From Vulcanimicrobiota bacterium (GTDB lineage: Bacteria > Vulcanimicrobiota > Xenobia > Xenobiales > JADMJV01), in contig JBFWNU010000001.1 in the NCBI GenBank assembly GCA_050250895.1, forward strand, positions 2,884,891 through 2,948,890: 64,000 nt of DNA. Reading direction: 5' to 3'. The position numbers and the translations under genes are program-made. The notes beneath the pieces were generated by a model that saw nothing but the letters and a program-made list of their open reading frames with translations, did no database searches and was not told where the DNA came from. This document shows positions 1 through 27,580 of the stretch, piece after piece; positions within the stretch are counted from its first letter, which is position 1, and every line of letters starts with the position of its first letter.

Positions 1-2
1 AT

Positions 3-2854: not shown

Positions 2855-3741
2855 GCGTTCTCAGTAGCACCCGAGGAGACCCAGAACTCCTCTACGCCGT
2901 CTTGCGCCTGCTCCAGGCGCGGGGCGAACCGCTGGCCACCACCGAGTTGCGCGACTGGCTGCAACCCGGCCTGGAGAGATACCCCGGTAGTCTGCTAGGA
3001 GACACCCTGGGGGTGGCCCGCAGCCTGGGTCTGGTGCAGTCGGTCGGCAAGAGCGTCGAGCTCACCTCAGAAGAGCCCCTTGACGCCATCGTGCAACTCG
3101 CCGATCGCGTCCACCTCAGACTTTGCACCTGTACCGCCGACGACCCGGACCTGGTGCTCTATCAGACTTTTGCCTGGTTCGTGGTGCAGTGCGAAAAGAA
3201 TGGCCAGACCACCCAGTGGATCGAGGGCTATTCGCGGCGTTCGGACCTGGCCGATGAGATCGACCAGGCCCTGCGCACCCTGCGACCCGACCAGGATGCC
3301 CGGGTGTTCAACGACTCGAAATATGCAAGTTGGAGCAACTGGCTGCACTTCACCGGCCTCGCCTGCGACCTGGGCAAGAGTTTTGGATTCTATCCGTTCG
3401 TCTACGAGCGGCTCAAACGGGAACTAGCCCGAGTGTCACACGACCTCGGTTTGAGAAAACAACTCGACCTGGAGATCGTGCTCCAGGAGGTGGCTCGCGC
3501 GATGCCTTATCTCGACGGCGGCAGAATTTTCGCAGACCTCTCGTCGGCGCTGAGGTGGCAGCAGCCACCTCGCAAGCTGACCCTGGTGCTTAGCACCGCC
3601 TTGCGCGAACTGCACGACCTCGAAGAGATCGAACTAGTCTCGAAGGGCGACATGGCCGACGCCTTCGCCCTGGCCGAAGACCGCTACTCGCGGGTCGGCT
3701 TCGCCCGCTGGATTGTTTTGAAGGAAGGTCTGTTTTCGTGA
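2851..3741 (+). CDS. dpdG: DpdG-like protein
   Basis: 296 aa, with GTGA overlaps on both sides. FNDSKYASWSNWLHFTGL, MPYLDGG and LSTALRELH resemble DpdG motifs, and it lies between dpdF- and dpdH-like genes. Confidence 0.65.
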   Translation: MSVLSSTRGDPELLYAVLRLLQARGEPLATTELRDWLQPGLERYPGSLLGDTLGVARSLGLVQSVGKSVELTSEEPLDAIVQLADRVHLRLCTCTADDPDLVLYQTFAWFVVQCEKNGQTTQWIEGYSRRSDLADEIDQALRTLRPDQDARVFNDSKYASWSNWLHFTGLACDLGKSFGFYPFVYERLKRELARVSHDLGLRKQLDLEIVLQEVARAMPYLDGGRIFADLSSALRWQQPPRKLTLVLSTALRELHDLEEIELVSKGDMADAFALAEDRYSRVGFARWIVLKEGLFS

Positions 3742-6700
3742 GCTTCGAGGGATTTGTTTGTTGGAAAGAGAGCGATGCCCGGGCCATCCTGGCCACCGAG
3801 GCTCTGGAAGGCAGTGAGGCCGCCTTCTTAGCCACCCATCTGCCCATCTCCGACTTCGAGGTGCAGGGCGTTCACGGGGCCGACATTCAGGAGGCCACCG
3901 AACAGGCTCTGCTCGACGTTCTCTCCACTCCCGAACGGCGCCACGCTTTTTGCGTGGTGGAGGGTGAGCCCGGTTCGGGGAAGTCGCATCTCATTCGCTG
4001 GCTTGGCGTCCGGTGGCCGCGAGGCGACGATCTCGTCCTGCTCATTCAGCGCGCCGATGGCAGCCTTGAGGGCACTCTCGAGCAACTGACCCGCAAGGTG
4101 CCCGAGCGTTACGCGCATCTCTTCGCGGGTCTCGGCAGTCGTCAAGAGGCCTCGTTGCGGGGACGGGCTCGCCTCTTCCTTTCGACTCTGGCCCGAACCC
4201 TCGAGGAGGATTACTTCGAAGAAGACGTTCCCCATGCCGAATGGTGTGCCAACTTTCAACTCTCTGACCTCTTCGACAACCCGGCCGTGCGCGACAATTG
4301 GCGAACCCCTGGCCGAATTCTCGACATCTATTCTGGTCGGACCAACTCAGAATTGGGCTTCTTTACCCTGAAGGATATCGCTGAACTGGCCGACCTCGAA
4401 AGCCGGATCCAGAACGAGAAGCCACCGCCAAAGGCTTTTCGCTTCATCCGCACGCTGGCAAAAGAGGGGCGGGAGCTGCGCAACTTTCTGGAGGCCGACT
4501 ATACCGAGTCGGAGATCAAAGCGGCCGCCGGCGACAAGCTCGTCAACACCTTCACCCTGGTCGACGCGCTGAACGTGCGTCTCAACCATGCCATTCAGAA
4601 CCTTATCGGCATCAGCTCGCACGGGCTGCGCGAACTCTTTCTGCGCTTGCGCCGCGAACTCAAGAAAGACAACCGTCGGCTGGTGCTGCTGCTGGAGGAC
4701 ATCACCAACTTTCAGGGCATCGACCAGCAGTTGATCGACGCCCTGGTCACCCAGAGCACCACCCGCACCGAAGACGACCTCTGCGACCTGGTCTCGGCGG
4801 TGGGCATTACGCCTGCCTACTTCGAGCGCTACCTCAGCACCATGGGCAACTACATCGAGCGCATTACCTATCACGTTCGCCTCGGGCGCGAGCAAGAGGG
4901 CAGTCACATGCAAGACGTGGCCAGCCTGCGCAACCCGGAAGCCCAGGTTCAATTTGCCGCCAACTACCTTCGAGCCACCCGGGCCGGGTTAGAACGCCTG
5001 GAACAGTGGGCCGGCAGCCAGGACCAGTCAGTTCCCAATGTCTGCTTGTCCTGTCAGCACCGGTCGGTGTGCCATGGTGCCTTCGGAGCCGCCGACGGAG
5101 TCGGTCTCTACCCCTTTACGGCCGGGGCCATCACGGGCATGTTCCATCGACTGGTCGACCCTCACGCGGCCACCCAGACCACACATCAGACTCCGCGCGG
5201 TATGCTCCAGGGAGTCTTGACCCCGACGCTGATGCACCCGCACGTCATCGAAGAGCAAGAATTTCCCTCACCCCACGCCGATGTGCCCTGGATCCCCGAG
5301 GAGCGACGGAGGTTGCGGGGCGACCACAAGCAGTTTCTGGCCGTCCAGGTGCAAGACCTCGACACGCGCCAACGCCTCGAGCGCCTCATCGAACTGTGGG
5401 GCACCCGCGACCACGTCGAGACCACCAAAGACGAAGCGGGTGAATTGCTTTTTGCCGGGCTCTCACGGGGGGTCTACGAAGCCTTTTCATTGCCGTGGTT
5501 GGGCGATGCCCAGCGGGCGCTCGAGACCCCCGCGCCGCCGCCCCCGCCTGTGGCGGTGGAACAGCCGAGAGTGCACCGAGTCCAGCCATCGGCGCCCTCG
5601 CCCAAGAAGAGTCGGACCGAGGTCATCCCGTCCGAGAAGCGCGCCACACCGAAGAAGGTGCGAGTCGACCTCGACATACGACGCGACCAGCTAGCGAATT
5701 GGCTAAAAGACGGGGGTCGTCTTGAAGATGCGGAGTTCTGGGCAGCGCAGGTTCAGAAGCTCCTGGACCTTTTGCCCTGGGCCCATTTGGACGTATCCCC
5801 GGCAATTCGAAGAGGCTTCTTCACGTCGAACCTCATCCACATCGAACGAAGTGGCACCGCACGCCGCGCCTACCACTTCGTCATTCCGGCCGAGAAGTGG
5901 TTGGCTGACGGACTCGAGGTCTTCATTGCTATCGAGGCGGGCACCGCAGAGGTCAGCGAGTTCCAGCGGCGCTGTCTGGCTCGGGCTCTGTCTCAACTGA
6001 AGAGGCTCGTCCTGCGACGTGTGGCCGAGGTGATTCCCTCGGTCGAGGGTCGACCCTGGTCGGTTGCCGGGTCAGCAACCCAGCTGCTGGTGGCGATGGA
6101 GTGGTTGGGCAAAGGAGCTTCGCCCGAGCAACCGCTGGTGGAGCAGTGGATACGGGTGCGCGACGACCAGGCACCCGGGGCGCCATCGAAGGAGAGAACA
6201 CAAAGGTGGCGGCGCGTGGCCGAGTTGAGCAGGCACCGGAGCGTGCTTCGTAACCTGCTGGCGAGTTTCATCACCTTACGAGACGGCACAGTCTTCTTGG
6301 ACGCAGCCGATGCGTGCACCGCGCTCGAGCGCCTGCGCCGAACGTTTTCGTTCGACGCAACCCCCGATCTGCCCGACCTTCAGCATTGGGCGGACATGAA
6401 GAAACTTGGGCAGCGGGCGCAAGACTCGCGCGCAGATTTTCAGTTGGCGGCAAGAGACGAGATTCGTCGTTTGCGAGACGGCTGCCAGGAGTTGGACGAG
6501 TACTTGCGCCAGAACTCGCTTTCGGAGCACGTGAAACGCATAGACTCGGTTCTCGAGGGAGTGCAGCGAGTGGATGTTCTTACCACCAATCGGCCCCGCG
6601 AATGGCATGACCAGCGAGGGGCGCTCGAGGACGCGGGGCTGATTGGGCCTTCGCCGGCTCTCGACATCTGCGGCTTCTTGGACGAGACACTTGAGCGCGA

Positions 6701-6950
6701 CGGCGAGTTCTCATCGCCTCTCGATGCTTTCCTCTGGTGTAGGGGGGCGCCGGCTGAAGCTCTGCAGCTGGTCCTTTCGGCCTGTCGCTCGGGAGAAGCC
6801 CTGGTGGCCGACCTCTTCACCCACGTACAGACCTATGGAGATGTGCGTGGCGGGGAAGCGAGTCTATCGAAGGTTCACGAGCGGGGCGAGTGGTTGAAAT
6901 CGGTGGGCGACGCCCTTCGGGCGCAGTTGGAGGTGAAGAGTGAAGTCTAA
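3738..6950 (+). CDS. dpdH: DpdH-like large P-loop ATPase
   Basis: 1070 aa. Walker A GEPGSGKSHLIRW, Walker B LVLLLEDIT, Cys cluster CLSCQHRSVCH, and GLYPF and TPR motifs. Size and position match DpdH. Confidence 0.7.
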   Translation: MSFEGFVCWKESDARAILATEALEGSEAAFLATHLPISDFEVQGVHGADIQEATEQALLDVLSTPERRHAFCVVEGEPGSGKSHLIRWLGVRWPRGDDLVLLIQRADGSLEGTLEQLTRKVPERYAHLFAGLGSRQEASLRGRARLFLSTLARTLEEDYFEEDVPHAEWCANFQLSDLFDNPAVRDNWRTPGRILDIYSGRTNSELGFFTLKDIAELADLESRIQNEKPPPKAFRFIRTLAKEGRELRNFLEADYTESEIKAAAGDKLVNTFTLVDALNVRLNHAIQNLIGISSHGLRELFLRLRRELKKDNRRLVLLLEDITNFQGIDQQLIDALVTQSTTRTEDDLCDLVSAVGITPAYFERYLSTMGNYIERITYHVRLGREQEGSHMQDVASLRNPEAQVQFAANYLRATRAGLERLEQWAGSQDQSVPNVCLSCQHRSVCHGAFGAADGVGLYPFTAGAITGMFHRLVDPHAATQTTHQTPRGMLQGVLTPTLMHPHVIEEQEFPSPHADVPWIPEERRRLRGDHKQFLAVQVQDLDTRQRLERLIELWGTRDHVETTKDEAGELLFAGLSRGVYEAFSLPWLGDAQRALETPAPPPPPVAVEQPRVHRVQPSAPSPKKSRTEVIPSEKRATPKKVRVDLDIRRDQLANWLKDGGRLEDAEFWAAQVQKLLDLLPWAHLDVSPAIRRGFFTSNLIHIERSGTARRAYHFVIPAEKWLADGLEVFIAIEAGTAEVSEFQRRCLARALSQLKRLVLRRVAEVIPSVEGRPWSVAGSATQLLVAMEWLGKGASPEQPLVEQWIRVRDDQAPGAPSKERTQRWRRVAELSRHRSVLRNLLASFITLRDGTVFLDAADACTALERLRRTFSFDATPDLPDLQHWADMKKLGQRAQDSRADFQLAARDEIRRLRDGCQELDEYLRQNSLSEHVKRIDSVLEGVQRVDVLTTNRPREWHDQRGALEDAGLIGPSPALDICGFLDETLERDGEFSSPLDAFLWCRGAPAEALQLVLSACRSGEALVADLFTHVQTYGDVRGGEASLSKVHERGEWLKSVGDALRAQLEVKSEV

Positions 6951-7653
6951 GTTGGCGCCACTGGAGGAACTCGAAGCTGCTTTACCCGGCCTGGGCGGGG
7001 CCGTTCAACGACACCACCTGGGCCAGAAGCTGGACTTTGCCTGTTCTCGCCTCGATAAGATCGCCGGAAGAGCGCAGGAGTTGGCGACCTATCCCGAGGT
7101 TCTGCCCCTGGTAATTGAGCAGCTCGAGGCCGTTGTTCGAGAGAATCTAGCTGGCAAGGCGCGAGGAGTTTGGGCCATCGGGGACAGGGCGTGCAAAGCG
7201 GACACCGCCGACGCTCTCGACGAGTTGGCTCGGGAGTTGAGCAAGATTGGCGAGTGGGCTAAGGAGATGCAGAGCTATCTCTTGGCGGCCTGGCAGCGAC
7301 GGGTCAAGACGGAGTTCGGCCCGGCCGGCCACTTGGGCCGGGTCCTCCAAGAACTCGCCGATGCGCCAGACCTGCGCGAAGTCGCCGAAATGATGACTGA
7401 GGTCGGTGCCGAGGGGGCGAAGTGCGGTGCCCGCTTGCCAGTGAACGAGGAACAGCGGAGGAGGTTCGCCCGCTTACGGGCTGAGCGCGACGAGGCCTAT
7501 GCGCTGTTGGCTGCTTCAGGGGCAGCGGATGATGTGGTGGAGTTTCTCCAGGCTGTGGCCGAGGATAGAGCGACGCTGGAGCAGGTCACTCCGGGAGTTT
7601 TTGGTTGGTTGCGGGAGAAGGGCGCTGGGGGAAGGTTTAGGGTGGGGTTATGA
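6940..7653 (+). CDS. DpdI-like alpha-helical protein
   Basis: 237-aa helical protein overlapping the dpdH stop, with C-terminal FLQAV...ATLEQVTPGVFGWL. Called from size and position. Confidence 0.5.
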   Translation: MKSKLAPLEELEAALPGLGGAVQRHHLGQKLDFACSRLDKIAGRAQELATYPEVLPLVIEQLEAVVRENLAGKARGVWAIGDRACKADTADALDELARELSKIGEWAKEMQSYLLAAWQRRVKTEFGPAGHLGRVLQELADAPDLREVAEMMTEVGAEGAKCGARLPVNEEQRRRFARLRAERDEAYALLAASGAADDVVEFLQAVAEDRATLEQVTPGVFGWLREKGAGGRFRVGL

Positions 7654-7686: not shown

Positions 7687-10600
7687 CTAGAGGTCAAATT
7701 CCCGGAGTCGCCTCGCAACCAACCGCCTTAGTTCTGGTAGCCGTGAAAAAAGTTGGTTACCGGGGCACTCTGTTGGCACCAGGTCACGATGGCCAACGAT
7801 CGAGTCTGGACTTATTTTGCTTGCGTAACATATTGACGCACAAAGCTCGACCAATCTCTCCCATTGCTCGGGTGGCATCTCGGTTTTGCGAAAATCACCA
7901 AAGTTTTCAATGCCAATAGAATTTGAGTTGTCCTCCTTGGTCCCGGCGTGGGCGCCCTGGACAGTAAAGCCTTTTCGCGCGGCCGCCAACGAGCCTTCCC
8001 GCCCCTCAAAGACAACACCATCTGATGATATCACGAACTGAACGCCAACATCGTCCCACGCGCGCTCAAAATCTATTCTCTGGAGGGATCTCATGTTCGC
8101 TCGCGCAGTTCCTTCGGCGTCATTCCTGGCTAACACTGGCAAGCTCCCAGTGTGATGAATCACAATAGATTTAGCCTCCCCGAGCTTAAACTCCCGCTTC
8201 GCGCGCAGGGCCCCCCATTCCGATCTGGTCACGACCTCATCCAGAGTCTTGAAAGGATTGGGCGGGGCGACAGCCATACTCTGAATCGGCCACGCGCGAA
8301 CCTTCGGCTTTGGTGGAGGAAAGCCCGGAGGTGGGCCCCAAGCCAAGACTAAGAGAAGACCCAAGCCAAGGCCAAACGCGGTGAGTCGCTCTATCATCTG
8401 GTCGAGGAGCCCGATCAGAGCGAACCCTTGACCAATTAGGTAGACAGTACAGGCCAGCACGGGAAGCCACTCTTGGGCACCAACCAAATTCAAGGCAACC
8501 GCCAGCATCAATCCAGAAAGGGCCAGACGCCATCGTGGAGCCGAGTTGCCAGGAAGTTGGCCGATTTCCCAAATCCAATAGAGGGTCAGCAACAACCAGC
8601 CAAACCGCCCCGTGGAGGTGGAATATAAGATTGCGAGCACCGCTCGACCTGGAAGAGGAGTATTGAGATCCAGGCATCGCTCTGGGGCTACTCGATCCCA
8701 TAATCTGGCAACTTTCTGTCTCCAGATTGCCATCGCCAATACGAACGCGATAAGGAGCACCTCCGAAACGGGCTTGGCGCGGCCGGCCAGTTCAGCCAGA
8801 TAGAGGTCCAAAAGGAAGAGTGAGGTCAAGAAGCAGGCAAGTAGAAAGATGACTTCCAAAAATGACTGACGACAGGCAAGACGAGTGAACACAATCCGTC
8901 GAATTCCGTAGAGTGAAAAGACCAGAAACGCGATGAAGGGAAACGCGATGAAGGCTCCCGATGGCCAAGGAAAACTAAAGATGATCGCTGGCCACACGAG
9001 TAGTCCTGCGAATAGCCCACCCCGCGGCATCTCGTTGAAGGAGCCCTTTACCACCAGTTGGAGAGCCCGCTCCGGGTCGATTCGGTCCACCGCGCTCAGC
9101 GGGCGCCTGATTTGGAATGGGGCCCGGTGTTGCCACAGAATTCCCAGACATCCGCAACACATCATCAAGACAGCCCCGACGGGCTCGACAGCGAAACCGA
9201 AGGGAATCGAAAAAAGTAGCGCTCGATAGAGGCGCCCCTTCCGTTCTCCGTTGCCGAAGAGCAAAATGGCGCTTAACAAGGCCGCGAAGAGAATACCCAC
9301 GGGTCGCGGCCACCACAGAGCCGCAACCGTGCCCAGAACCACTGATCCTATCGTAGTCGGGATGGCCGAATGATGCTGCCCTATCTCGAGTGAGGCTCGG
9401 AGTTCCTTCAGAGCAGTCCACAAACGAAGCCGGACCCGTTGACGCTCGCCATCGTCCAGGGTAATTGAGCCCTCCGCACCATCTTCCGTTTCAGGCACAC
9501 TGGTGTCGTGCAAATGTCTGACGAGGTCGGCGACTTGTTCGCTTTGGGCTCGCGCCTCTTCGCGCGGGAGGCTTGCCAGCAACCAATCCCTCAGCCACGT
9601 TGGTATGGATCCGGTGCGAAACCAGGGGAGTCGGAAAAGTTTGAGCAGAGAGGCAGTGCCCCGTTCACCAGTGGGTCGCCCGGCTAGAAGTGCGAGCGTC
9701 AGATCGAAATGAAGACTCCTGTAGGTAGCGCAACTCTGAAGCACCCGAAAGTGGTCGTGCCCCAGGTATGCTTCCAACTGATTCAGGAACTCTTCGATTT
9801 TCTGCGGACTAGGAGGGCGCGGCGCCGTCCACGTCCGCTCGTCAAGTTGGAGAGCCAAAGGATATCCCTCTTCCGCTGGGTAAAGTTGCTCCTTCGCTCC
9901 ACTCGTTAAAGCATCCAAGCCCTCGTAGCTGAATGGAGAAATCAAAATCCCCGACTGCTTCAACCTGTTAAGCAACTCAGGGAACTCCAAAACGTCGGGT
10001 AGCGCCATCACTCGAACAATGCGCTCGCGCGAGAGTTGGAGCAACCATTTGAGTGGTTGAAAGGAGAATGCCTGGTGGAGACTCCTCGGTGCGGCGAATA
10101 CCCACACCTCGCTCGGGTTGAGTCGACCGAACAACTCCTCCCGGTGAAGCCACTGACCTCTGTAGCGCACAAACCTGGGTTCGCCCTCAAAATAGGCCCA
10201 ATGGACGGGGAGACTAGCGTCTAGGAGTTGTTGGGCGAAGCCTTCGAACAACCGAGCTTGGTGGTCAAGATGGGACCGCCGCTCTATTAGGAAGAAGTAG
10301 ACCTTCAACCTGGTTGTCTGATGGTACACTGGCGTGAAAAGCCCAGCATGGCGGACAGTGGCTTTCACCGACCGGCCAATGCTCAGCACCGGTTCTGCCG
10401 AGGCCTTCTTAAGTGCCAGACTCCGGACAAGCCGAGCGAGCAGATTGTGGTCAAACCAGCGTGACCCCGTCAGTTTGCGCTGAGAGTGACGTCTGAGAGA
10501 CACTTCCCACGCTTTTCTTACCAGGACTGGTTCAATGCGGGATAGCTTCGTCATGGCGACGAGGAGACAGGCAAGTCCGAGGCTCGCCAAAGTGGCGGTA

Positions 10601-12099
10601 AGAACCCAATCCGGCAGGAGCGGGGGCCTAGAAACAATTGAGGCACCAAGGTTCCATACCTTGAAGTTCCTTTCCAAATCCACAAGTCTTAGTTCTGGGC
10701 AGGAGGTGAACAACCAACGTCCATCTGCGCTGGTCAGTAGAGAGATAATCGACCCCTCCAGCTTGATACTGGAGACCTCACTACGCTTGGCCAAATCCCA
10801 TATTCTAACACGACCGTCCTCTTGTCCGAGAAGGAGCCGCTTATCCGGCGACCAGGTGAGCGTGGTAATTGGGCTCTCGGCTCTAGGAATGGTGGCGAGC
10901 AGTCGGTCGTATTCCCAGACTTGAACGGACCCATCCACTAGGAGGAGCCCGGCTTCCCCATCGGGGTGGCAAACCGCTTTCGCAACCGCCCGGCTAAGGG
11001 TCGCGCGCCGTGAAGCCTCGCCCTTGCTCATCCAATCGATCTCATTCTCACCAACCGCCGTTACAGCACGGTCGCCAGCCACTGCCAAAACTCGGTGCCC
11101 GATCGATCCCAACCGAAACGGGATGGGTGGGAGCATTTTGCCATCGCCATCGGCTCGTCCATCGATTCCGGCCACTAATGCCACTTCTCCATCGGCCAAG
11201 CCGCAGGTCAACGTCGGCCACTCGGACCCCCTCCCGGCCATCAGTGCTGTCACCGGTGCGGATCCGATCTCAATTTGAAAGCTGCGGATTGTCGGATCTT
11301 CAGCCGGCCGAAATGACCTGACATCAAAAACCCAGACACTCCCGTTTCCGTCACCTACGGCTAGGACTCGACCTGCCGCCACCAACTTCGTTATTGGACC
11401 GCCCCTCCACGGCGTCTCCGTTCGCCGCCCGTCGATCCAGAGGTCCAGTTTCTCACCTGATGCGACCGCAAGATAACCAGCCCCTGCGACAATCGGGGTT
11501 GTGATGGACGAATCGATTTGACCGAGGTCTTCGTAACCGTTAGTCTTTTCAAGATAGCGCTCAGAGAGTGTCCACATCCGCAGACTGCCGTCCGCGCCCA
11601 ATGCAAAGAGCGAAGAACCGCCGTGAGACTTACTAAAATTTGAAGAGTTCGGTGTCGGAATGACCGAAGGTTGGGGGGGAGCTTGAGGAACCATGTTCGT
11701 GCGACTGACATCCGACAGAAGGTCAGCGGGTGCGGTTGTGCGCGGCGGGCAGAACTTATAGGTCAGTATGAGAACTGTGCTAAGAAGGAGCGCGACTATC
11801 CACCACCTGGACTTTGGCACGGTTGGCGGCTCAACAACTGGCTCTGGCCCAGAACCAGCACTCTCAAGCCGGAGCCACTGAGCGAAGTCTCGCGAAAAGG
11901 TCTCCTGCTCCGGGGCACTTTTGACCAGAATTGGTCTCAGAAAGTCGCGTGCATCAGCGAGTCTGAACTCAGGGTTTCCTCTAACCAAGTTCTTTAGGAG
12001 TGCGTGGCCCCTTAGCCTCTCTCGAACTCCAACGCTATATCCTCGCCCCTCAAGAAATTCAAACAGCCGATCCAGCGTCGTCGGACTAGGAATCAACAA
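7687..12099 (-). CDS. Ternary-system vWA-like membrane protein: N-terminal helical domain, TM, WD40 propeller, TM, vWA-like domain, multi-TM block, C-terminal Amidase_2/PGRP-like domain
   Basis: WD-like repeats (GADGSLRMW, GDGNGSVWVFD, DGSVQVWE, GQEDGRVRIWD). ATVRHAGLFTPVY and FLIERRSHLDHQ (degenerate MIDAS) are typical of MoxR-associated vWA proteins. Amidase motifs IVIHHT, GAHA, SIGIE and GHRD...TECPG. Overlaps the MoxR gene. Confidence 0.75.
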   Translation of the reverse strand: MLIPSPTTLDRLFEFLEGRGYSVGVRERLRGHALLKNLVRGNPEFRLADARDFLRPILVKSAPEQETFSRDFAQWLRLESAGSGPEPVVEPPTVPKSRWWIVALLLSTVLILTYKFCPPRTTAPADLLSDVSRTNMVPQAPPQPSVIPTPNSSNFSKSHGGSSLFALGADGSLRMWTLSERYLEKTNGYEDLGQIDSSITTPIVAGAGYLAVASGEKLDLWIDGRRTETPWRGGPITKLVAAGRVLAVGDGNGSVWVFDVRSFRPAEDPTIRSFQIEIGSAPVTALMAGRGSEWPTLTCGLADGEVALVAGIDGRADGDGKMLPPIPFRLGSIGHRVLAVAGDRAVTAVGENEIDWMSKGEASRRATLSRAVAKAVCHPDGEAGLLLVDGSVQVWEYDRLLATIPRAESPITTLTWSPDKRLLLGQEDGRVRIWDLAKRSEVSSIKLEGSIISLLTSADGRWLFTSCPELRLVDLERNFKVWNLGASIVSRPPLLPDWVLTATLASLGLACLLVAMTKLSRIEPVLVRKAWEVSLRRHSQRKLTGSRWFDHNLLARLVRSLALKKASAEPVLSIGRSVKATVRHAGLFTPVYHQTTRLKVYFFLIERRSHLDHQARLFEGFAQQLLDASLPVHWAYFEGEPRFVRYRGQWLHREELFGRLNPSEVWVFAAPRSLHQAFSFQPLKWLLQLSRERIVRVMALPDVLEFPELLNRLKQSGILISPFSYEGLDALTSGAKEQLYPAEEGYPLALQLDERTWTAPRPPSPQKIEEFLNQLEAYLGHDHFRVLQSCATYRSLHFDLTLALLAGRPTGERGTASLLKLFRLPWFRTGSIPTWLRDWLLASLPREEARAQSEQVADLVRHLHDTSVPETEDGAEGSITLDDGERQRVRLRLWTALKELRASLEIGQHHSAIPTTIGSVVLGTVAALWWPRPVGILFAALLSAILLFGNGERKGRLYRALLFSIPFGFAVEPVGAVLMMCCGCLGILWQHRAPFQIRRPLSAVDRIDPERALQLVVKGSFNEMPRGGLFAGLLVWPAIIFSFPWPSGAFIAFPFIAFLVFSLYGIRRIVFTRLACRQSFLEVIFLLACFLTSLFLLDLYLAELAGRAKPVSEVLLIAFVLAMAIWRQKVARLWDRVAPERCLDLNTPLPGRAVLAILYSTSTGRFGWLLLTLYWIWEIGQLPGNSAPRWRLALSGLMLAVALNLVGAQEWLPVLACTVYLIGQGFALIGLLDQMIERLTAFGLGLGLLLVLAWGPPPGFPPPKPKVRAWPIQSMAVAPPNPFKTLDEVVTRSEWGALRAKREFKLGEAKSIVIHHTGSLPVLARNDAEGTARANMRSLQRIDFERAWDDVGVQFVISSDGVVFEGREGSLAAARKGFTVQGAHAGTKEDNSNSIGIENFGDFRKTEMPPEQWERLVELCASICYASKISPDSIVGHRDLVPTECPGNQLFSRLPELRRLVARRLREFDL

Positions 12100-13024
12100 A
12101 CTCTCTGACCCACTCTAACGAAGGTGGCATATCCTCCTTGGCCTTTACCAAAAGGCCGAGGCTAGCGCTAAGGCGCTCGACTGCCCAAGACCAGTCGGGA
12201 CTATCGACCTCGTGAAGCCAGACCATGAACTCCCCCGTGCTCGGGATCCGGACCAGTCCACGCTCGCGCAGCCCAATAAAGAAGTCTAAAGCTTTGTCCA
12301 ATCGGTCTAGTCGCTCAAGACGCGTTGAAACCATCGCCTTTAGCTCTTCTTTCTCTGGAAGCGGAATATGGAAGTAGGCGCAGCGGCGGAGGAAGGGGCT
12401 CGGAAGAAGCGATTCCGCATTGCTTGTCAAGAAAATGATGGGACTGCAGGCTGGGTTCGCTTCTAGTTTCACTCTGTGCGGCAATTCTGTCATTTCGAAA
12501 GATGGAGCGTCCTCGAAGGCTGCAAGCAAATCGTTGGGGAAATCTCTCGGAGCCTTATCAATTTCGTCGATGAGGACCAAGCTTCGCACAGGCTCGGTGC
12601 CACACTCTGAGTTCCATAGGCTGAGCTCACGCGGCCGACCCTCGCCGTCCCTTCCCCAGGACCTAAGAATTGCCTTGCCTAGGGCGTTAAAGGTGACAAA
12701 AGATGTCGGCTCGATCGTCTCTCCCTCAGCGCGTAGCTGAGCAGCCCTGAAGTGCCCGATGTGGTCGAAGCTATAGAAAAGATCCTGGTAGCAGGTTGAA
12801 GATCTGGCATTAAACCGATATACAGGCACGCGGAGCTCATTTCCCACATAATAGGCCAGTTGTGTCTTTCCGACTCCTGGATCGCCGGTGACCAAAAACG
12901 GGAGGCCGAGCGTTAGGGCACTCTGTACAGCCTTCTTTAACTCGGGAGAAGCTATATATTCTTGAGGTCGAAATTTCGGTGGTAGGGTTGCTGGAAGGAT
13001 AAAATCCCCTGCCTTCTTGGTCAT
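12086..13024 (-). CDS. MoxR-family AAA+ ATPase
   Basis: Walker A GDPGVGKT, Walker B LVLIDEIDKA, DFPNDLL, and Arg-finger FLRRC. ATG 13024 overlaps the upstream TGA. Confidence 0.9.
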   Translation of the reverse strand: MTKKAGDFILPATLPPKFRPQEYIASPELKKAVQSALTLGLPFLVTGDPGVGKTQLAYYVGNELRVPVYRFNARSSTCYQDLFYSFDHIGHFRAAQLRAEGETIEPTSFVTFNALGKAILRSWGRDGEGRPRELSLWNSECGTEPVRSLVLIDEIDKAPRDFPNDLLAAFEDAPSFEMTELPHRVKLEANPACSPIIFLTSNAESLLPSPFLRRCAYFHIPLPEKEELKAMVSTRLERLDRLDKALDFFIGLRERGLVRIPSTGEFMVWLHEVDSPDWSWAVERLSASLGLLVKAKEDMPPSLEWVREFVDS

Positions 13025-14340
13025 TTGGCGTCTCCAAAAAAATGCGGCTTGAGAATGTCGCCAATGCGCTCTACCCAAATCTCCATGGTCAACGGCTCTT
13101 CGAGTATTTTTCTGGCTTGTGATTCTATTTGCTTTAGTTGGTAGGCTCCACACCACCGCGGAAGGTGCTCTAGATTGATCTTCTCGAAGCCGTCGATTCG
13201 AATACATTCGGCGCCGGGTCCGTTCAACCACGACTCCACGTCCCGCTGCGAGAGTGTGCTTTGAGCGGATGGGTTGAACCAGGTAGCCAACTTTGCCAAC
13301 AGCCCAGGTTCGCGGTATTCTAGAAAAAAGATCACAGAAGCCTGGGGATTTCTGCCGAGACTCTTTTTGAGCAGTCGAAGATATTCACCGAAACGGGGCT
13401 GCATCATTTTCCTTAGAGTCTCTTTCTGGCAGACATATTGATAAAGGAGTCGGGGGCCCCTTCCTACCTGTGAAATCAACTCTCTCTCCACTTCATCCGG
13501 TTCCCAACTCTCCAAGGGCGGGATGTCCAAGCTACGGGGTTCCTGGGGATGTGCGGCGAGATGATCGGTGAAGCGAGAGATGACGTGGCCTGCTAACCCA
13601 AACGCTGCGAACATTTGGCTGCGTTCTCTTTGTCCGGCCCTAAAGAGCTCTCTCTGCGAGTGCCGATTGACCAGGTATTCAACTACTCCCAGTCCCGGCC
13701 GAGAGGGTCCGCACGTAGGGCTCCCATTCCTCCCACCCGCTTCTAGTTCGAACGTGAAATCCCCACACACACTGCGATAACTGTCCAACTTTGGGTCTTT
13801 TCGAACCTCTCGTAGCAACTCTTCTTGCCGCCAACGACCAACCCACAAGATGTCTTTGACATCAATATCGCGACCAAACGGGTGATTCGTTTTTGGTTTG
13901 GTATCGGAGGCTTCCCAACGCTCGTCAAACTGTTTGAAGAACTGCTGTCGGAGTTCATCTTCCCTTTGGCTTTGACCCTCGTCGCTGTCCGCCAAAAAGT
14001 AGAGGGCGCAGTTTGCCGTATTTGTCATCTTGCCAATGAAGAACTCAAGTTCAAGGTATACCCAGCTCTTCTTTCTCGTCAGATTATTGATTGTGTTTTC
14101 AGAGACAAAGACTACCAAGCCTGCCGAGCTCCTCAAACCAGCAGCGAGTTTGGGCGTGATGCCGTCGCCGGGCTTGATAACCGCTTCGTCCAGGAAGACG
14201 GAGAGAGCGTGTTTACCTACTTCGCGAACCTTGAGCGAATCATAAACACTACGCACCCAGCCGCGCTCATGATGGTCTTGACCCTTGTCCCGGCTGTCGT
14301 GCGAAAGGAACAAATCGTAATGTTGATTATCGTCAGCCAT
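13021..14340 (-). CDS. TIR domain fused to a probable inactive STAND (iSTAND) domain
   Basis: N-terminal TIR (YDLFLSHDSRDK, VFLDE...PGD, SWVYLELE). The C-terminal half starts EYLVNRHSQ and lacks an intact Walker A, resembling iSTAND. It is the first gene before MoxR and vWA. Confidence 0.65.
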   Translation of the reverse strand: MADDNQHYDLFLSHDSRDKGQDHHERGWVRSVYDSLKVREVGKHALSVFLDEAVIKPGDGITPKLAAGLRSSAGLVVFVSENTINNLTRKKSWVYLELEFFIGKMTNTANCALYFLADSDEGQSQREDELRQQFFKQFDERWEASDTKPKTNHPFGRDIDVKDILWVGRWRQEELLREVRKDPKLDSYRSVCGDFTFELEAGGRNGSPTCGPSRPGLGVVEYLVNRHSQRELFRAGQRERSQMFAAFGLAGHVISRFTDHLAAHPQEPRSLDIPPLESWEPDEVERELISQVGRGPRLLYQYVCQKETLRKMMQPRFGEYLRLLKKSLGRNPQASVIFFLEYREPGLLAKLATWFNPSAQSTLSQRDVESWLNGPGAECIRIDGFEKINLEHLPRWCGAYQLKQIESQARKILEEPLTMEIWVERIGDILKPHFFGDAK

Positions 14341-14410: not shown

Positions 14411-15145
14411 CTAGCCAAAGAAGGCGTCGAAAATGTGCGGGGAAAGGAGGAGGACGAGAAAAAAAAGCCAGGCGATGTTGACCTCGAGTTTACCCAACGG
14501 GGTTTCCCTCTCCGGGTCTTGCTTCAGGCCACCGAGGCCTGCGTCGTTTTGGCCGCTCTCAGGAAACTCATCAATTGATGGGGCCTTCTTTTGTATGTCA
14601 TTGATTGAAGGCGATTCCTCTCGCCATGATCCGGCCGGGGTTCCCCCCTCGAAAGGCCGGGATAGGGTGAAGCTGATTCCTTCGGCGAGAAGCTCGGCTT
14701 GTTGTAGCCACTCCGGTTGACCCGGGTGGAGTAACGCCTCGCGACCGTCTGTGTGGAGGAAGAAGCGAATCTGCTTAAACCTGGATAGAAGGTCCCAAAT
14801 CTCCTCAGCCGCCCGACTACGAGGTATTTCTGATTGGAGCAGGATGGGAACGACCTTTGACATACCGTGATTACCAAGAAACGCGGATAGCTCATATCGA
14901 CACCATTCGGACTCGAAGTAGGCCCGAGAAACAATGCAGAGTAACAGCCGGCTGCGCCCAAGCACCCTCTCTGCTTCAAATTCGACACCCGCTGAGAGAC
15001 CGGTGTCATTGAAGATTTTGGTGGGGCGGCCGATGTGCGCCGTAATCCTTTGCTGGAGGAACACCATTAGGGACTCCACCCACTCGGCATCTTCCCCTGT
15101 GTAGCTTATGTATAGGTCGTAGTCAGGGTCGTCTCGGATATTCAT
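14411..15145 (-). CDS. TIR-domain protein with hydrophobic C-terminal tail
   Basis: YDLYISYTGED, LLLCIVSRAYFESEWCRYEL (Glu retained) and VVPILL. The C-terminus IAWLFFLVLLLSP is a possible membrane anchor. Confidence 0.8.
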   Translation of the reverse strand: MNIRDDPDYDLYISYTGEDAEWVESLMVFLQQRITAHIGRPTKIFNDTGLSAGVEFEAERVLGRSRLLLCIVSRAYFESEWCRYELSAFLGNHGMSKVVPILLQSEIPRSRAAEEIWDLLSRFKQIRFFLHTDGREALLHPGQPEWLQQAELLAEGISFTLSRPFEGGTPAGSWREESPSINDIQKKAPSIDEFPESGQNDAGLGGLKQDPERETPLGKLEVNIAWLFFLVLLLSPHIFDAFFG

Positions 15146-15150
15146 GAAAT

Positions 15151-18100
15151 TTAGTCCTCGCCGCTGCCCCTCGCTGGAAGTGCGTCAAGCACCCGCCGGT
15201 CCCAACCCTTCGGTCGGACATCGGGGCACTTGGCAAGGGCCTTGCCGGTCGGCGGGGTTTCGGGTTTTAGACAAGCGAGGTCGGCGGGCTCCATCAAGGC
15301 TCTTCGACTCAAAGCCGCCCTCGCCTGCGTCCCTGACATCAAATCACTGCTCCCAAACAGACAAGCCTCACAGCCATCCGGGCACAGTCGTCCCGCGAAG
15401 CGAAAGACTTGCTCGGCCAGTCGCTCTTCGGGGCTCATCCCGGCCTCATGCGAGACGCCCTCCAGTCCCCGATAGGCGGCAAGTAGGCCCGCCAACTGTG
15501 GCGAGCGGCCGTCCTGAGCTGCTTTCACCGCTCCCGTTACCAGTTCCCAGGTCGACGGGGCCCTGGGCATCGACTGGGCCAGTTCGGCCTCGACCGCTCG
15601 CACTTCGCGAACCAGGTCGAAGAAGTCGAACTGCTCCACGCCGACCGTCTCGCGACCGTGCAACAACTGCACCAGGCGTCCAAGGTCACCATCCACGCTC
15701 AATTCGGTCCGTAGCGCCTCGACGAGAGCTGCCCGGTCGAGCGAGCGCCACCGCTCGTGCTGCTCGCTCATGGCCAGCATCCGGTCCACCGCCGCGTCCT
15801 CGCGAGCGTTCGGACAGTCCACCAGGCCATGGTCCCGAACCTCGTCGAGGGCCTCTTCGAAGCTCTCCAAAAAGGTCCGGGTGGTCCCGTCCCCGTGGTC
15901 ACCGTTCTCCACCACCGAGATGATGTCGTGAGACTCGGCCCCAAATTGCAGAGGCAGCCGAGCGTGAAAGAGCACCCGGCGCTCGTCCCCCCGCCCATAG
16001 AGCACGAAGAGGTCCCGCAGACGCATCGCCAACCCATGCAGAAAGAGCGACCGAAGGTAACCCCGAAAGACCTCCGCGTCGCTGACATCGGTGACGATCT
16101 TGCGAAAGGTGTCGGCGAAGCCGGCCCGCTCCAGCACCTTTTCCAGCTTGTCGATGCGCCGCTCGGTCAGCAACGGGTGATAGCGCAAGACGTTGCGATA
16201 GGTCTCTCGCAGCAGGTTCATCATCCTGGTCTGGTCCCACCGCCCCCGCAACACTTTCTTCCCTTCGTCACTGGCGGCCGCGCTCACGAACAACTCGGCC
16301 AGGCGGTTGGCTTCGAAGCTATTCACGCCGAGGCCCGATAGCCTGCTCTCCATCAAATAGGCCAGTAACTTGCCCCGATAGTGGCGCTCCTCGCCCGGAT
16401 TGGCCTGGAGATGCTCCAGCATGGCATCGACCCGAGCATCGAGCTTGGCGCTGTCGACGTGAAACCGCACTCCCTCGGTCTCGACCTGATAGCCGTGCAG
16501 CAGGGTCTTGTCGGTCTTGGGATAGACGAAGGTCTGGGTGAACTCGGCGTCCTGGGTCTTGGTGTCTTTGAGCTTCAGCGACACGTCGGCCCCCCAGTAT
16601 AGGCGGGTGACCCGCAGCCCCGTGCCCGGCCGGTCGGATGAGCCGACAAAGGCCTCGACTTTCTCGAACAGGTCAGATAGGTCGGTGGGGGTGATGTCGC
16701 TGCCGCGGCCGTCTTCAGCCGCCACCACCAGAAAGCCCCGTAGGAATGAGCGACTCTTTTCGGTGGCCGGCAGGCCCGGCTCTTGCTGTTGCTTGTCTCG
16801 CTTGATGAGACCGTGGCCCTCGCGATAGAGCCAACCCGAGGTGAAGCTGGCGCCAGACATTTTCCCGCCGAGGTCGAGGTCGAGGGTCTTCGGACGGCAG
16901 ATCTTGGGGTAGATCTCGGCCCCAAGGCCATCCCGCACCTCGACGGGCAGCTCGCGACGAAAGTCTTCTCCGCTCTGTTCCTGACCGGTGAGCGTGAAGC
17001 CGGTGCTGTCGCGATAGTCGCTCAAGAAGGGGCTGCGACCGGGCGTGGGGGGCACCCAGTGGACCGTCCCCATGCCGTAGCGGCGGGTCATATTGCCCGG
17101 GGCGCACTCGGTAAAGGCCAGGGTGATATCGACAGGCACCGGGTCTCGCGCATCGGGATGGCGCACCATCAGCAGCGGCAGGTTGATCGAGTCAAACAGC
17201 CGCTGGGGCACCCAGGCCAGACTGCCACGCCACGTCGAGGGCTCTGCGGTCACGTCCAGTCCTTCCTCTTCCAGCAGCTGCTGAAACAAGGGAAGCGAGC
17301 TCTCGAGGCCGAGAATGGCGAACACCGTTGGCCCGCAGGCGGCCACGACCATCTCATCCGCCATGGTCACCAGTTGAGGCGCCACCTCGAGCTTGCCAGA
17401 GGTTCTTCTCAAGCCGTACTTTCCGGGATGCAGGGTTCGAAAGCGGGCCACGGCGTCGAGAGCGGTGGCGGCCGCCTGACCACGCACGACGAAATAGTTG
17501 CTGATGTTGAGCGGCACCGCGAAGTTGCGGGCATCGAGCATCCGCCGAGGCGAGCGAAAGTACCACGAGTCTCGCGAGGAATAGACCGACAACGTCACTC
17601 CCGTCACGGGACGGTCATCGGCTCCGCGGCCCCCTCGACCCTTGCGTTGGATGAAACTGGCTAGATTGCCCGGAGCATAGTGCTGATAGACGAGCGTCAT
17701 GTCGGGGTCGTCATAGCCCACCTCGAGAGTCGAGGTGGCAAAAATGAGGTCACTGTTCTGCAGCAGTTCTTCGGTGCGACCGCTGGTGCCTGAAAAGATG
17801 GGGCGGTGGGCTACCGTGAGAGGGTCGCCGGGGCGATAGCGTTTGCCGGCCATCCACTGAGCCTGGTCGGTGGCCGCGAAGAACCAACACTCGCCCTCAC
17901 GAAAGCGGTCACAAGAGAGCGGCTCCCTGCAGCAGGCGCGGCACGGCTCGCCGGTGGCCGGGTCGTCGTCAAGTAGTTCGGTGCGTAGCGCCGCCAGTTT
18001 GTTGGCCTCCGCATCCGAGTAATCGCTGTGCAGGCGCTTGAGTTTGTCGATCGAGTCGAGAAAGACCACGCCTCGAAAGCCGCCTTCTTTGCCGGTACGG

Positions 18101-21100
18101 CGGCGCATTCCGTGGGCCAAACACATCAGGCACTGGATGGTGGTCGAAGCGCCGGCGATGTCCTGGCCTCGCGATTCGACCTCTGGCTGGACGAAGTAGA
18201 AATACTCCCGACCGCGCGGATTGACCAGTCGTTCCTCCTCGGTCGGCCCCAGGGCCACCACCTGCTGGCGGCCACAAAGGTCACCCCACACCCGGTCGGG
18301 GCGGCTCAGGGTGGCGCTCATCCCAATGGCCAGAGGACTTTCGTCGCCGTTGACGGTCAGGCGCGCCAACAACCGCCGCAGGGCATAGCCAACCTGGGCC
18401 CCGTGCACATGCGAGTAGAGATGGATCTCGTCGGCCATCACCGCCCGAGCGGGAGCAAACTCCGTATCGCCAAAGATCGCACCATATCTGGAGTCGTGTT
18501 GCCACTGGTGGAGCGACTCGGTGACCGGCAAGAAGAAGTGAGGCGGGTTTTGGCGCAGGCCCTCCTTCGAGCCAATCCACCCCAAGAAGCACCAACCGCA
18601 AGCACACTCCAGTCGGTCGGCCCCTCCTCGGCCCTCACCCTCGAGCAAAGATAGATCCTGCGAACATTCAGGACAAGAGAAGAAAGGAAACTGCAAGGCT
18701 CCGCCAGGCAGCGCCCGCCATTCTTCGAACTTGTCGGGGTTGGACCGCAGATAGCCAAAGGCCGAGGGTACGCTGCCGTTCTGCAAGCCGATGGTGAGAG
18801 GAGCGACCCCGGGGTGCTGGTTGAACGCGGCCAGGTAGCGCACCAACCGCTGCGCCTGGTTGGCCCCCAGGCGAATGCGGGGATAGACCAGGATGGCCCG
18901 GCAGCCGCGCACCCCCCGCAGTGCGTCGACGGCTGCTCCCACCAGCATCGGCAGGCAAGCCGCTTCGGTCTTGCCCGAGCCGGTGTCGGCTGTTACCACG
19001 AAGGCCTCCTCCTTGCCAACCCCCAGCCAGGCCGAGAGGATGCTCAAAAGAGCGCGCTGCTGAAAGCCGGCGATGGTCGGGTTGTCGACGCCCCAGCAGA
19101 CCGAGAGCATGTGAGCGCAGGCCTCCAGGGCCAACTCAAGATTGGGATCGTCGGCCAGCAGGCCCCGGGCCTGCTCCAGAGTGGCCCGCAGAGAAACGTC
19201 ACGAATCGGCTTCTGGCGGTCGATGGTCTCGAGCTTGAGTGAGCGCACCAGATAGGGGCGCCGGTGGGCGTCGCCCTTGCGAAAGCGCTGCTTCACGTAG
19301 CGCAACTCGCGGGCCAACTCGGCCATGCGACTGCGAACGCCGCCTTGCTCGTCGGGCATCAGATGGCCATGTTGCTCAAGCCGGTTAATGGGTTCTAAAA
19401 GCGCGTCGCGGGCCACACCCAGTCTTTCGGCCAGCGTGGAGAGCATCACCCACGATTCGGTCACGCCGAAATTGATGCGACCTCGCTCGATATCCTCAAG
19501 AGCGTTCAATACCTCGAAGTCACCGTCGGTGAGTTGCACTTCTGGCGGTGGCAGGGGCTGCTCGTTCACTTCCGTCGCGCTAGTCAGATCGAAGGTTGGT
19601 TCGTCGTTATGGCTGGTCTCCACCAAAAGGCCCTCTTTGACCAGGTCTCTCAGCAAGGGCAGTAAGACATCCTGCTCCTGGGCATTGACCCATACAAAGC
19701 TGTTGCGCAGGTGGCGGTATTGGGGCGCGAATCGGCCTCGGCGGCGAGAGTGGATCACCTCGTCGATGCGGCTGCGCACGGTCACCTCATCGGCGGTAAA
19801 TGGCAACGACGGCGGCTCGATCGGTTTGAAGCACCAGAACCTTCCGTGGGGCCCCGTCTGTTCGGCGAACTCGATCATGCCCAGGGTTAGCAACTGATGA
19901 AAGAGGGCGAAGGGCGGTTGGTAGGCAAGCTTCTTGCGGACTGCGCTCACGGTGGCGTTGCCGTAGCGGCTCTCGAGGGCGCAAGCTTTGATGGCTCCGA
20001 AGAGTTCCTCGAGTTCCCTCGTCAGCTCTGGGGGATCTTCGACGGCAGAGACCTCGACTGGCTGTAGCTCTTCTGGCGCCTGACCGAAGGTCTTGACGCG
20101 GATGGTGACCTCGACCCCTCTTCCGTCGCACTGACGTTCGACTGCGCCGATTTTGTGTGTGTCGAAGAGGAACTCGCGCAGCAGTTGGGCGTGTTCAAAG
20201 AGTTCCTCGTCGGGTGGCACCACCTCGAGCAGACGATTGCTGGCGATCACCACCAGTTTGGTCTTAGCTCGCGTGATCATCACGTTGAGGCGCTGGGGAT
20301 TGAAGAGAAACTCGGCCTCTGACAGAGCGAATTCTGGGTCTGAGACGGTGTAGCAGGCCAGAATGGTATCGCGCTCTTTGCCCTGGATGCGCTCCACCGT
20401 CTCGACCACACAGCCCTCACTCAGCGTCGAGTTCTCGAAGCTCCGTCGAATAGCGGCGTTCTGGGCACGATGCGGCGTGATGATGGCGAACCGGTCCTGC
20501 CAGAACTGGTCGTGGTCGAGATAGCGGTGGAACAGCCTGGCCAGGTGGCCGGCTAGATCGACCTCGAATGGGTTGAGCGTGCCGTTCGGCGGGCCATCGT
20601 GCAGCAGCACCACGATCGGATGCTCGGGGTCGAGCACGGCGCACTCCCAGGGGGCTAGAGCCTCCCTCCAGTCGCCTCGCAGTTCCAGGCGCTGCTGCCC
20701 TGACTGCTCGGACGCTTTGTAGTTGCTCTGGTAGAAGCTCTGCGCCGGAAAAGCGGCCAGGGGGGCATTGAGCCGAAAAGTCTCGTCGAGGGGAAACTCC
20801 GGAATCTCGGCCTTCTTCAAGAAGGCATAGAGCGAGCCCGTGAGGCGCCGCTCATCGAGTTCTTCATCCTGGCTGGCCCGGATGGGAGCTAACTGGCGGT
20901 CGTCGCCCACCACCAGCACGCGCCCGTCGTTGGCCAACCCACCTAGCCCCAGCAGGCCGTGCGAGAGCAGCATTTGCGAGGCTTCGTCGACACAGACCAG
21001 GTCGAACCTGGGAGCGTCGCCCCGTTTGAGCCTCTTGAAGAGCGACCACACGGTACCGCCGGCCACAAACCACTCGGCCTCGAGCGGCTTGACCGTCTTG

Positions 21101-27460: not shown

Positions 27461-27515
27461 CGTAGGTGCTCGTTCGCCGGCAAGACTCGACCTCCTTGCC
27501 CGACTTGACTCCGAG

Positions 27516-27580
27516 CGACGGCTGCACAGTCCAGGGCGTCCCCATCGGCGGCTTCGCGGGGGACGGCATCCCATCGAACG
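27516..27580. repeat. 65-bp direct copy of 30008-30072 (inside lipoprotein gene 1)
   Basis: Manual alignment: 7 mismatches in 65 bp. Encodes DGCTVQGVPIGGFAGDGIPSN versus DGCTVQGLHIGGFAGDGITSN. Confidence 0.9.

Follow-up and report, generated by a model that had tools for sequence, protein, structure and literature searches.

The window analysed here, a stretch of 64,000 nucleotides from a Vulcanimicrobiota bacterium, holds a cassette of four co-oriented genes on its minus strand, inside a bacterial defence island (Table 1). In their order on that strand, these genes encode a small TIR protein (gene 1), a protein joining a TIR domain to an iSTAND-like half (gene 2, or P0003), a MoxR-like AAA+ ATPase (gene 3) and a large membrane protein (gene 4, or P0001). 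The last three form the core of an arrangement that Kaur, Burroughs, Iyer and Aravind (eLife 2020) predicted computationally as iSTAND-type MoxR-vWA ternary conflict systems. The cassette is genuine and intact and, within the predicted family, highly divergent; its combination of domains was not seen in the sample of relatives collected here.

Layout of the cassette and its family

All four reading frames are intact, one of them over 1470 codons. The original prediction had described three overlapping genes, and these three open reading frames (ORFs) are confirmed on the minus strand; what it overlooked is gene 1 and the surrounding cluster of Dpd genes. With regard to gene 3, the longest open frame is longer than the gene itself, the start of which is most likely the ATG at 13024: the stop of the 439-residue gene and this ATG overlap as ATGA. 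At its other end, the stop of the ATPase gene sits 14 bases inside the 1470-residue gene, past the TTG start of the latter. Translational coupling links the three core genes, which keep the same order across phyla. A scan for promoters and terminators gave matches no more numerous than those in shuffled sequences.

Homologues speak for the TTG start of the large gene, since their N-termini align with its first residues. In the public gene call this protein has 827 residues, beginning at an internal GTG at residue 644, and the call is probably truncated because such a start cuts the conserved central domain of the family. The possibility that the frame of 1470 codons represents two genes was likewise rejected, since the conserved family domain crosses the alternative start at residue 644.

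How far does this arrangement extend beyond the window? At E <= 0.001 the large protein has 16 sequence relatives, one being its own shorter gene call. These share with it an N-terminal domain of ~80 residues and the central region 534-848 (27-32% identity), the surrounding domains being unrelated. A scan for the motif RLPWFRxG led to 31 genome loci from many phyla and metagenomes added 64, which brings the sample to 95 loci. An ATPase homologue (E 1e-29 to 1e-60) is found directly upstream and on the same strand in 24 of the 31 genome loci; as for the other seven, in five no more than ~220 bases of the fetched contig precede the gene, while two (L019 and L023) have room upstream, yet no ATPase match. 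The ATPase is also present in 49 of the 64 metagenome loci; where 1.2 kb or more is available upstream (47 loci), it is the adjacent gene in 40. The gene preceding the ATPase matches Pfam PF19995 (iSTAND) in 17 of the 21 related loci scanned, and the N-terminal domains of these third genes comprise TIR_2 (8), DUF4062 (3), Trypsin_2 (3), protein kinase (3) and caspase (1). DUF4062 is reportedly a TIR-like NADase, according to a 2026 preprint, which would fit its fusions to iSTAND.

The accessory domains of the large protein were surveyed in 57 homologues, made up of two Pfam-scanned sets of 26 and 31. The most frequent is FGE-sulfatase/FGS (8/26 and 6/31), followed by WD40 (4 and 3, always C-terminal) and PEGA (5); others are PASTA, OmpA, Sel1, a penicillin-binding protein (PBP) transpeptidase, IcmF/TssM periplasmic domains, PKD and CarboxypepD_reg. 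The conserved order of third component, MoxR and large protein, together with these matching accessory domains, supports the proposed membership in the MoxR-vWA ternary systems. A search of the ESM Atlas with one homologue, P0006, returned nothing usable.

The likeness to the systems of Kaur et al. (2020) extends to many details. The three-gene core and its order are the same; a TIR domain stands at the N-terminus of an inactive STAND module, just as TIR occurs on iSTAND proteins in the published systems; and the MoxR-like ATPase is devoid of long extensions. The large proteins described there have N-terminal transmembrane (TM) segments, as does that of the cassette, in which these segments stand between a putatively helical N-terminal domain and the conserved core; a helical linker comes next and then, as in a subset of the published proteins, variable C-terminal domains behind TM segments. 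FGS is the commonest domain in the published systems, which also have the peptidoglycan-associating PEGA, OmpA, PASTA and Sel1 behind a TM segment, and all five are carried by the homologues found here. However, there are differences as well. In the window the WD40 propeller occupies the loop between TM1 and TM2, whereas it is C-terminal in all 7 WD40-bearing proteins of the 57; the C-terminus consists of a block of 9-12 helices followed by an Amidase_2 domain of the peptidoglycan recognition protein (PGRP) type, a domain found in 0/57; and the cassette has an extra TIR-TM gene, a degenerate acidic pair and a third component too divergent for the Pfam iSTAND model. The words "amidase" and "PGRP" are not in the main text of the Kaur 2020 or 2021 papers.

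The composition of the cassette also sets it apart from its surroundings. GC content is 0.52-0.58 over the four genes against 0.62-0.66 outside, and GC at third codon positions (GC3) ranges over 0.57-0.62 in the four genes, all parts of the large one included, against 0.71-0.80 in the flanking Dpd genes. The cassette sits between DpdF and DpdH, on the plus strand, and DpdJ, on the minus strand. The genome carries a single copy of the central domain, which (as residues 530-900 of the large protein) is absent from the 40 relatives searched, where matches are confined to the WD40 and amidase parts. Because of the low GC and GC3, the Dpd flanks and the central domain being found in 0/40 relatives, the cassette looks, by its sequence, like a foreign insertion into the defence island; a foreign cassette can, it seems, lodge inside a Dpd cluster. 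PADLOC has no model for a system of this kind and gave weak IetA and ThsB-like matches only.

Table 1. Genes and domains of the cassette and the assigned Dpd genes that flank it (window coordinates)
Feature	Position	Strand	Description
Gene 1	14411..15145	minus	244 aa; TIR_2 and C-terminal hydrophobic tail
Gene 2 (P0003)	13021..14340	minus	439 aa; TIR and iSTAND-like half
Gene 2, TIR domain	13906..14340	minus	residues ~1-145; TIR_2 E 3e-5
Gene 2, iSTAND-like inactive P-loop NTPase domain	13024..13728	minus	residues ~205-439; ESM Atlas, invariant residues, shuffle test
Gene 3	12086..13024	minus	312 aa from ATG at 13024; MoxR-like AAA+ ATPase, AAA_5/midasin type
Gene 3, full ORF	12086..13231	minus	longest open frame of the AAA+ gene
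Gene 4 (P0001)	7687..12099	minus	1470 aa, TTG start; large membrane protein
Gene 4, N-terminal helical domain	11815..12099	minus	residues 1-95; kept at homologue N-termini
Gene 4, TM1 / WD40 propeller / TM2	10543..11808	minus	residues 98-117 / ~120-495 / 497-519; hydropathy, Pfam, PDB
Gene 4, conserved core	9556..10500	minus	residues 534-848: Rossmannoid alpha/beta (~598-734) and helical domain; putative "vWA" and linker of the family
Gene 4, polytopic block	8329..9363	minus	residues 913-1257, ~9-12 helices, then Pro-rich linker; hydropathy, positive-inside
Gene 4, PGRP-like Amidase_2 domain	7756..8175	minus	residues 1309-1448; Pfam PF01510 E 6e-20
DpdF	2-2854	plus	PADLOC 1e-145
DpdH	3738-6950	plus	PADLOC 7e-163
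DpdJ	15151-21522	minus	full length; PADLOC 1710 bits; ends 5 bases before gene 1

Domains of the large protein and its partners

The large protein begins with the putatively helical domain that it shares with its relatives, present in 75 of 97 ORFs with the central domain and cytoplasmic by inference; its comparison with the CoxE proteins of relatives was not significant (hhalign P 0.099). The WD40 propeller that follows is flanked by two hydrophobic segments, in agreement with the original prediction. One repeat exceeds the Pfam cut-off (33 bits), WD40 propellers in the PDB are matched at E 3e-12, and a stretch rich in K and R comes after TM2. In homologues, the same loop between TM1 and TM2 holds PEGA, PKD or CarboxypepD_reg domains. 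Since the flanking N-terminal domain and the core must both meet a cytoplasmic ATPase, the propeller should be extracytoplasmic, and this is the most likely placement on sequence grounds.

With regard to the central core, an AlphaFold2 (AF2) model built from a 30-sequence alignment (predicted local distance difference test, pLDDT, 80; predicted template modelling score, pTM, 0.78) shows a beta-alpha domain with a hairpin after the second strand, and then a helical domain. On this model the fold can confidently be called Rossmannoid. The hairpin brings the count to six strands and fits the vWA topology, defined by Kaur et al. (2020) through six strands, an Asp at the end of strand 1 and another at the end of strand 4. 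The modelled core is thus compatible with a minimal vWA domain, a label that stays putative; a metal ion-dependent adhesion site (MIDAS) motif is not present.

What does this fold resemble? Foldseek with the core model gave no match at E <= 0.001. Its third-ranked match, among unrelated Rossmann folds, was chain G of the NorQD complex (E 3.2e-3, probability 0.99), presumably the vWA protein NorD, which partners a MoxR-class ATPase. This likeness to the NorQ-NorD pair is under significance, chain G falls outside the top 50 on re-ranking by Z, and the core is unlike NorD in being without the MIDAS motif. In VIA-align the best match was the TIR domain of SIGIRR (Z 9.4, root mean square deviation 3.3, 121 residues aligned), with CheY-like receivers at Z ~7.4-8.9 and the vWA of collagen VI at Z 7.5, Z values of this size being usual for models without a true match. 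The core thus has its best structural matches among flavodoxin-like folds of the receiver and TIR type, and the family has acidic residues at two strand ends, as these do; unlike them, it has no Pfam Response_reg or TIR match in this region and its hairpin gives six strands. The core profile found nothing below E 1 among PDB sequences. An earlier, untrimmed profile had matched the PDB only through the WD40 domains of homologues, and was set aside.

The polytopic block of ~9-12 hydrophobic helices is present as predicted, and has no Pfam family at E <= 1. A word-based search with residues 901-1470 returned the window's own shorter gene call only, and there is no similarity to the polytopic block of the homologue from Azospirillum lipoferum 4B.

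The C-terminal Amidase_2 domain, another claim of the original prediction that holds, is a clear case: Pfam PF01510 matches it with 72 bits against a cut-off of 26, and 28 PDB sequences do so at E <= 0.001, the best being Drosophila PGRP-LB (7e-20), with mammalian PGRPs at 1e-13. The segments "IHHT", "GHRD" and "ECPG" align with PGRP-LB and keep the H, H, T and C positions; the two His and the Cys are presumably the zinc ligands. Opposite "GYSF" of PGRP-LB the window reads "GVQF", with Val in place of a Tyr that we take to be the catalytic one of PGRP-LB and of the amidases. Amidase_2 homologues from relatives keep this Tyr in 7/7 cases. By its sequence, the domain is therefore a member of Amidase_2, but probably not an active amidase. 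Drosophila PGRP-LB and the Amidase_2 family, which includes T7 lysozyme and AmpD, share with the window domain the two His, the Cys and the Thr; unlike the animal PGRPs, the window domain has the Val, is tethered to a polytopic protein and stands in an operon with ATPase and TIR genes. Non-catalytic animal PGRPs as a rule lose the zinc Cys, whereas the window domain retains it. It also resembles phage endolysins (27-30% identity), and its match to the NCBIfam AmpD model is weak (E 0.007). The search for similar architectures suggested by the original prediction found Amidase_2 in 0/57 Pfam-scanned homologues, and phmmer with the amidase domain, the TM block or the two halves of P0003 gave no match in the ORFs of the 31 genome and 64 metagenome loci.

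Turning to the partners, the TIR domain announced for the N-terminus of P0003 stands, though its TIR_2 match (25 bits) is under the Pfam cut-off of 28: the NCBIfam retron-TIR model matches at E 1.6e-10 and AbTIR at E 2.7e-5. Its "WVYLEL" aligns with "WTNYEL" of AbTIR and keeps the Glu, presumably the catalytic residue of TIR NADases.

The C-terminal half of P0003 is a harder case. It had been described as a degenerate NTPase, and the ESM Atlas does place it close to STAND proteins: the clusters nearest to P0003 carry PF19995 (scores 0.95 and 0.94), and the best alignment of its Atlas model (pLDDT 0.56) is to an EAD2/iSTAND cluster, with a template modelling score (TM) of 0.65 over residues 212-434; AAA+ and STAND clusters come next. 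In a MAFFT alignment P0003 is collinear with 11 iSTAND proteins and shares all of the only invariant positions, R226, Q229, G248 and W371. Against a hidden Markov model (HMM) of 17 iSTAND C-terminal parts this half scores 9.2 bits, while the maximum in 2000 shuffles was 5.5. The Walker A position reads "FGLAGHVISRF", without Lys. Several weaker lines thus agree that the C-terminal half is STAND/AAA+-like and nearest to iSTAND, contrary to the first condition that would have refuted the original prediction. At the level of sequence, P0003 is an orphan: a word-based homologue search found P0003 alone, and a full HMMER scan gave five other matches, none of which, among 1.84 billion representatives, extends into residues 229-439.

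As for the ATPase, the original prediction of a MoxR AAA+ protein held for the AAA+ part more firmly than for the MoxR part. The Walker A and B motifs are intact, and their positions, along with those of sensor-1 and of an Arg-Arg pair, are invariant columns of the family, the window protein included. The placement in the MoxR clade is less firm, for among 19 family members AAA_5 matches 19/19, bpMoxR 4/19 and AAA_3 2/19, and the family profile resembles the AAA domains of midasin (E 1.2e-18); RefSeq names the Azospirillum homologue "MoxR family ATPase". The window ATPase by itself has only weak Pfam AAA matches, found nothing useful among PDB sequences and matches NCBIfam MadB_ATPase weakly (38 bits against a cut-off of 475). 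It is 39-41% identical to the other members, whose own median is 46%.

Gene 1 has a TIR_2 match over the Pfam cut-off (E 1.7e-12, 48 bits) and carries "WCRYEL", the counterpart of the Glu motif of AbTIR. Its translation ends in the hydrophobic tail LEVNIAWLFFLVLLLSPHIFDAFFG, and its GC3 of 0.62 resembles that of the other cassette genes. In related loci, 0/18 ORFs lying upstream of the iSTAND genes have a TIR domain; as judged from these loci, a TIR protein with its putative membrane anchor is peculiar to the cassette.

Proposed wiring and competing explanations

Collectively, these data make it fairly probable that the cassette is a horizontally acquired, membrane-anchored ternary system of the iSTAND-class MoxR-vWA type, most likely an immune module acting by abortive infection or dormancy. 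How could such a module work? The large protein would be an envelope-facing receptor, in which the propeller or the PGRP-like domain, or the two together, would recognise a ligand indicative of a breached or remodelled wall, such as muropeptides or a phage component. The MoxR-like ATPase would then remodel the cytoplasmic core of this protein, and the change in the core would allow the iSTAND modules to assemble and bring the TIR domains together, so that NAD+ is consumed or a nucleotide signal is made. The membrane-anchored TIR protein of gene 1 may provide a second output.

This receptor reading is favoured because the enzymatic, death-type domains are found on the iSTAND protein, while those on the large protein are mostly binders, and because the active site of the amidase is probably disabled. 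The earlier suggestion that TIR signalling is driven from the envelope is plausible, and the loss of the catalytic Tyr strengthens it. The direction of the signal would be the one proposed for VMAP systems by Dore et al. (PNAS 2024), who assign sensing to a ligand-binding domain and execution to the third component. Several TM segments occur in some target proteins of those systems, as in the large protein here; unlike the cassette, their third component is VMAP and their sensor is a C-type lectin domain diversified by a diversity-generating retroelement (DGR).

In a narrower proposal, the large protein would serve as a pattern-recognition receptor directed at the wall of the cell itself: the catalytically disabled PGRP domain, with its zinc site retained, would hold muropeptides set free as a phage or lytic enzyme breaks the sacculus and, with the extracytoplasmic propeller, signal through a MoxR-driven switch to the inactive-STAND scaffold, which would then fire TIR NADases. 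We offer this as a tentative possibility, more doubtful than not. If true, it would represent an independently assembled bacterial counterpart of the TIR signalling that animal PGRPs trigger, and the first ternary system to sense envelope damage.

A number of observations weigh against the interpretation as a whole. The literature searched contains computational predictions only and no experiments on any iSTAND or ternary MoxR system, hence the mechanism is an inference. The direction given by Kaur et al. (2020), with iSTAND as the sensor and the vWA-fused domains as effectors, is the reverse of the one favoured here. The topology is ambiguous: an amidase inside (K+R in/out 27/4 or 26/4) agrees with hydropathy and the positive-inside rule as well as one outside (26/6) does, the hinge being whether residues 1155-1178 span the membrane. 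The "vWA" label that the original prediction gave to the central domain was not confirmed: Pfam vWA models match 0/58 proteins (that of the window and 57 homologues) and hhalign gave the core a probability of 1.7% against a CoxE-type vWA and 0.9% against VWA_2, both from alignments of relatives, while the same comparison made between these two genuine vWA families reaches 97%. The fold matches of the core are generic. At the two acidic positions, each D in 19/30 family members, the window has E and A, although a third Asp, in "DHQ", is invariant in the family. The Pfam iSTAND model, one of the checks first suggested for P0003, gave no match at E <= 0.1; hhalign of P0003 with 11 iSTAND proteins matched the TIR part only; and its AF2 model is poor (pLDDT 54), such that the AAA+ proteins, the plant TIR-NLR RPP1 and the TIR domains returned by Foldseek, all with low TM, carry little weight. 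Lastly, the window ATPase is a long-branch outlier (leaf branch 1.57, median 0.23), a feature that decay could explain as well.

Among the competing explanations, the one that survives best is the wiring of Kaur et al. (2020), which lets the third component sense and the domains fused to the vWA protein act as effectors. Applied to the cassette, the iSTAND protein would sense an invader in the cytoplasm, for example its nucleic acid, TIR would signal, and MoxR would release or activate the large protein, with the polytopic block and the amidase killing by damage to membrane and wall. The three zinc ligands and the Thr that the amidase keeps, its resemblance to phage endolysins and the size of a polytopic block that could act on the membrane all suit this scheme, but the amidase has Val where 7/7 relatives keep the catalytic Tyr, the fused domains of the 57 homologues are mostly binding modules and not toxins, and the death-type enzymes (TIR, caspase, trypsin) sit on the iSTAND protein. 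We regard it as unlikely.

Could the cassette instead be a decaying or inactive relic, acquired by transfer, with its metal-binding residues eroded, its third component an orphan and its amidase disabled? The E and A found at the conserved acidic pair, the lost Tyr, the branch length of the ATPase and a C-terminal half of P0003 with no detectable sequence relative among the 1.84 billion representatives would all suit such erosion. The four frames are intact, however, and their start and stop overlaps are preserved; the ATPase motifs and the TIR Glu are in place, and the core still folds in the family alignment (pLDDT 80), all of which makes a relic improbable.

The last alternative is a function outside immunity, namely a housekeeping signalling complex for envelope stress or peptidoglycan turnover, with a muropeptide-monitoring membrane protein whose assembly or regulation falls to a MoxR chaperone; one family member does carry a PBP transpeptidase and others PASTA or OmpA, and the amidase domain, if cytoplasmic, would presumably parallel the location of AmpD. 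Even though Kaur et al. (2020) list MoxR-vWA pairs as assembly chaperones in several non-defence systems, this explanation is very improbable for a cassette with foreign GC3, placed inside a Dpd defence cluster beside TIR and NERD-helicase genes, not found in the 40 relatives searched and belonging to a family whose partners carry the TIR, caspase and trypsin domains typical of conflict systems.

Returning to the cassette as an envelope-facing immune module, its main interest is that two opposite wiring models are in print and that it could be used to decide cleanly between them, being compact and having, in TIR activity or the level of NAD+, an easy read-out. Its putative input domain has a known class of ligands, the muropeptides, and the natural substitution in the active site argues for binding over cleavage. 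If the sensor reading holds, bacteria would guard their own wall with a PGRP-like receptor coupled to TIR, and the iSTAND and MoxR components would gain a testable role. The cassette is a good candidate for a first experiment on the ternary MoxR class.

Other versions of the scaffold and neighbouring genes

Some relatives of the large protein deserve mention in their own right. Two are other cell-wall-directed versions of the same scaffold: one from a Myxococcota metagenome-assembled genome (locus L008, 7958-12799) has a penicillin-binding-protein transpeptidase and dimerisation domain, and another (L007, 9068-12400) combines WD40 with PASTA. In a metagenomic member (L069, 4181-8641) the C-terminus is made up of a papain-like peptidase and a Macro domain, the latter a module that binds or removes ADP-ribose, here in a family whose partners often carry TIR. 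In Azospirillum lipoferum 4B the operon is found on a conjugative plasmid of 750 kb (NC_016586.1, 176929-184098; locus L158) and reads trypco2, trypsin-iSTAND, MoxR and large protein; the last, of 1411 residues, is annotated as "O-antigen polymerase" owing to its polytopic C-terminal block.

In the window itself, the cassette splits a Dpd cluster, a defence system based on 7-deazaguanine DNA modification, into one part at 2-7653 on the plus strand and another at 15151-23753 on the minus strand, such that the F-to-I genes and the J-K genes converge. Three genes within the split cluster, at 2851-3741, 6940-7653 and 21519-23753 (the latter a PD-(D/E)XK protein), are without assignment and presumably occupy the places expected for dpdG, dpdI and dpdK.

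Further along, at 23811-25538 on the minus strand, a 575-residue protein has a strong TIR_2 match (E 7e-30) and a weak SAVED-like PADLOC match; its GC3 of 0.63 is low like that of the cassette, and it is possibly another foreign defence gene. A 441-residue gene at 26249-27574, with a weak DUF6880 match only, neighbours a gene at 27581-29218 on the minus strand that encodes a NERD domain with a UvrD-type helicase (PADLOC RTasNERD-Hel, 7e-52), a type associated with defence reverse transcriptases.

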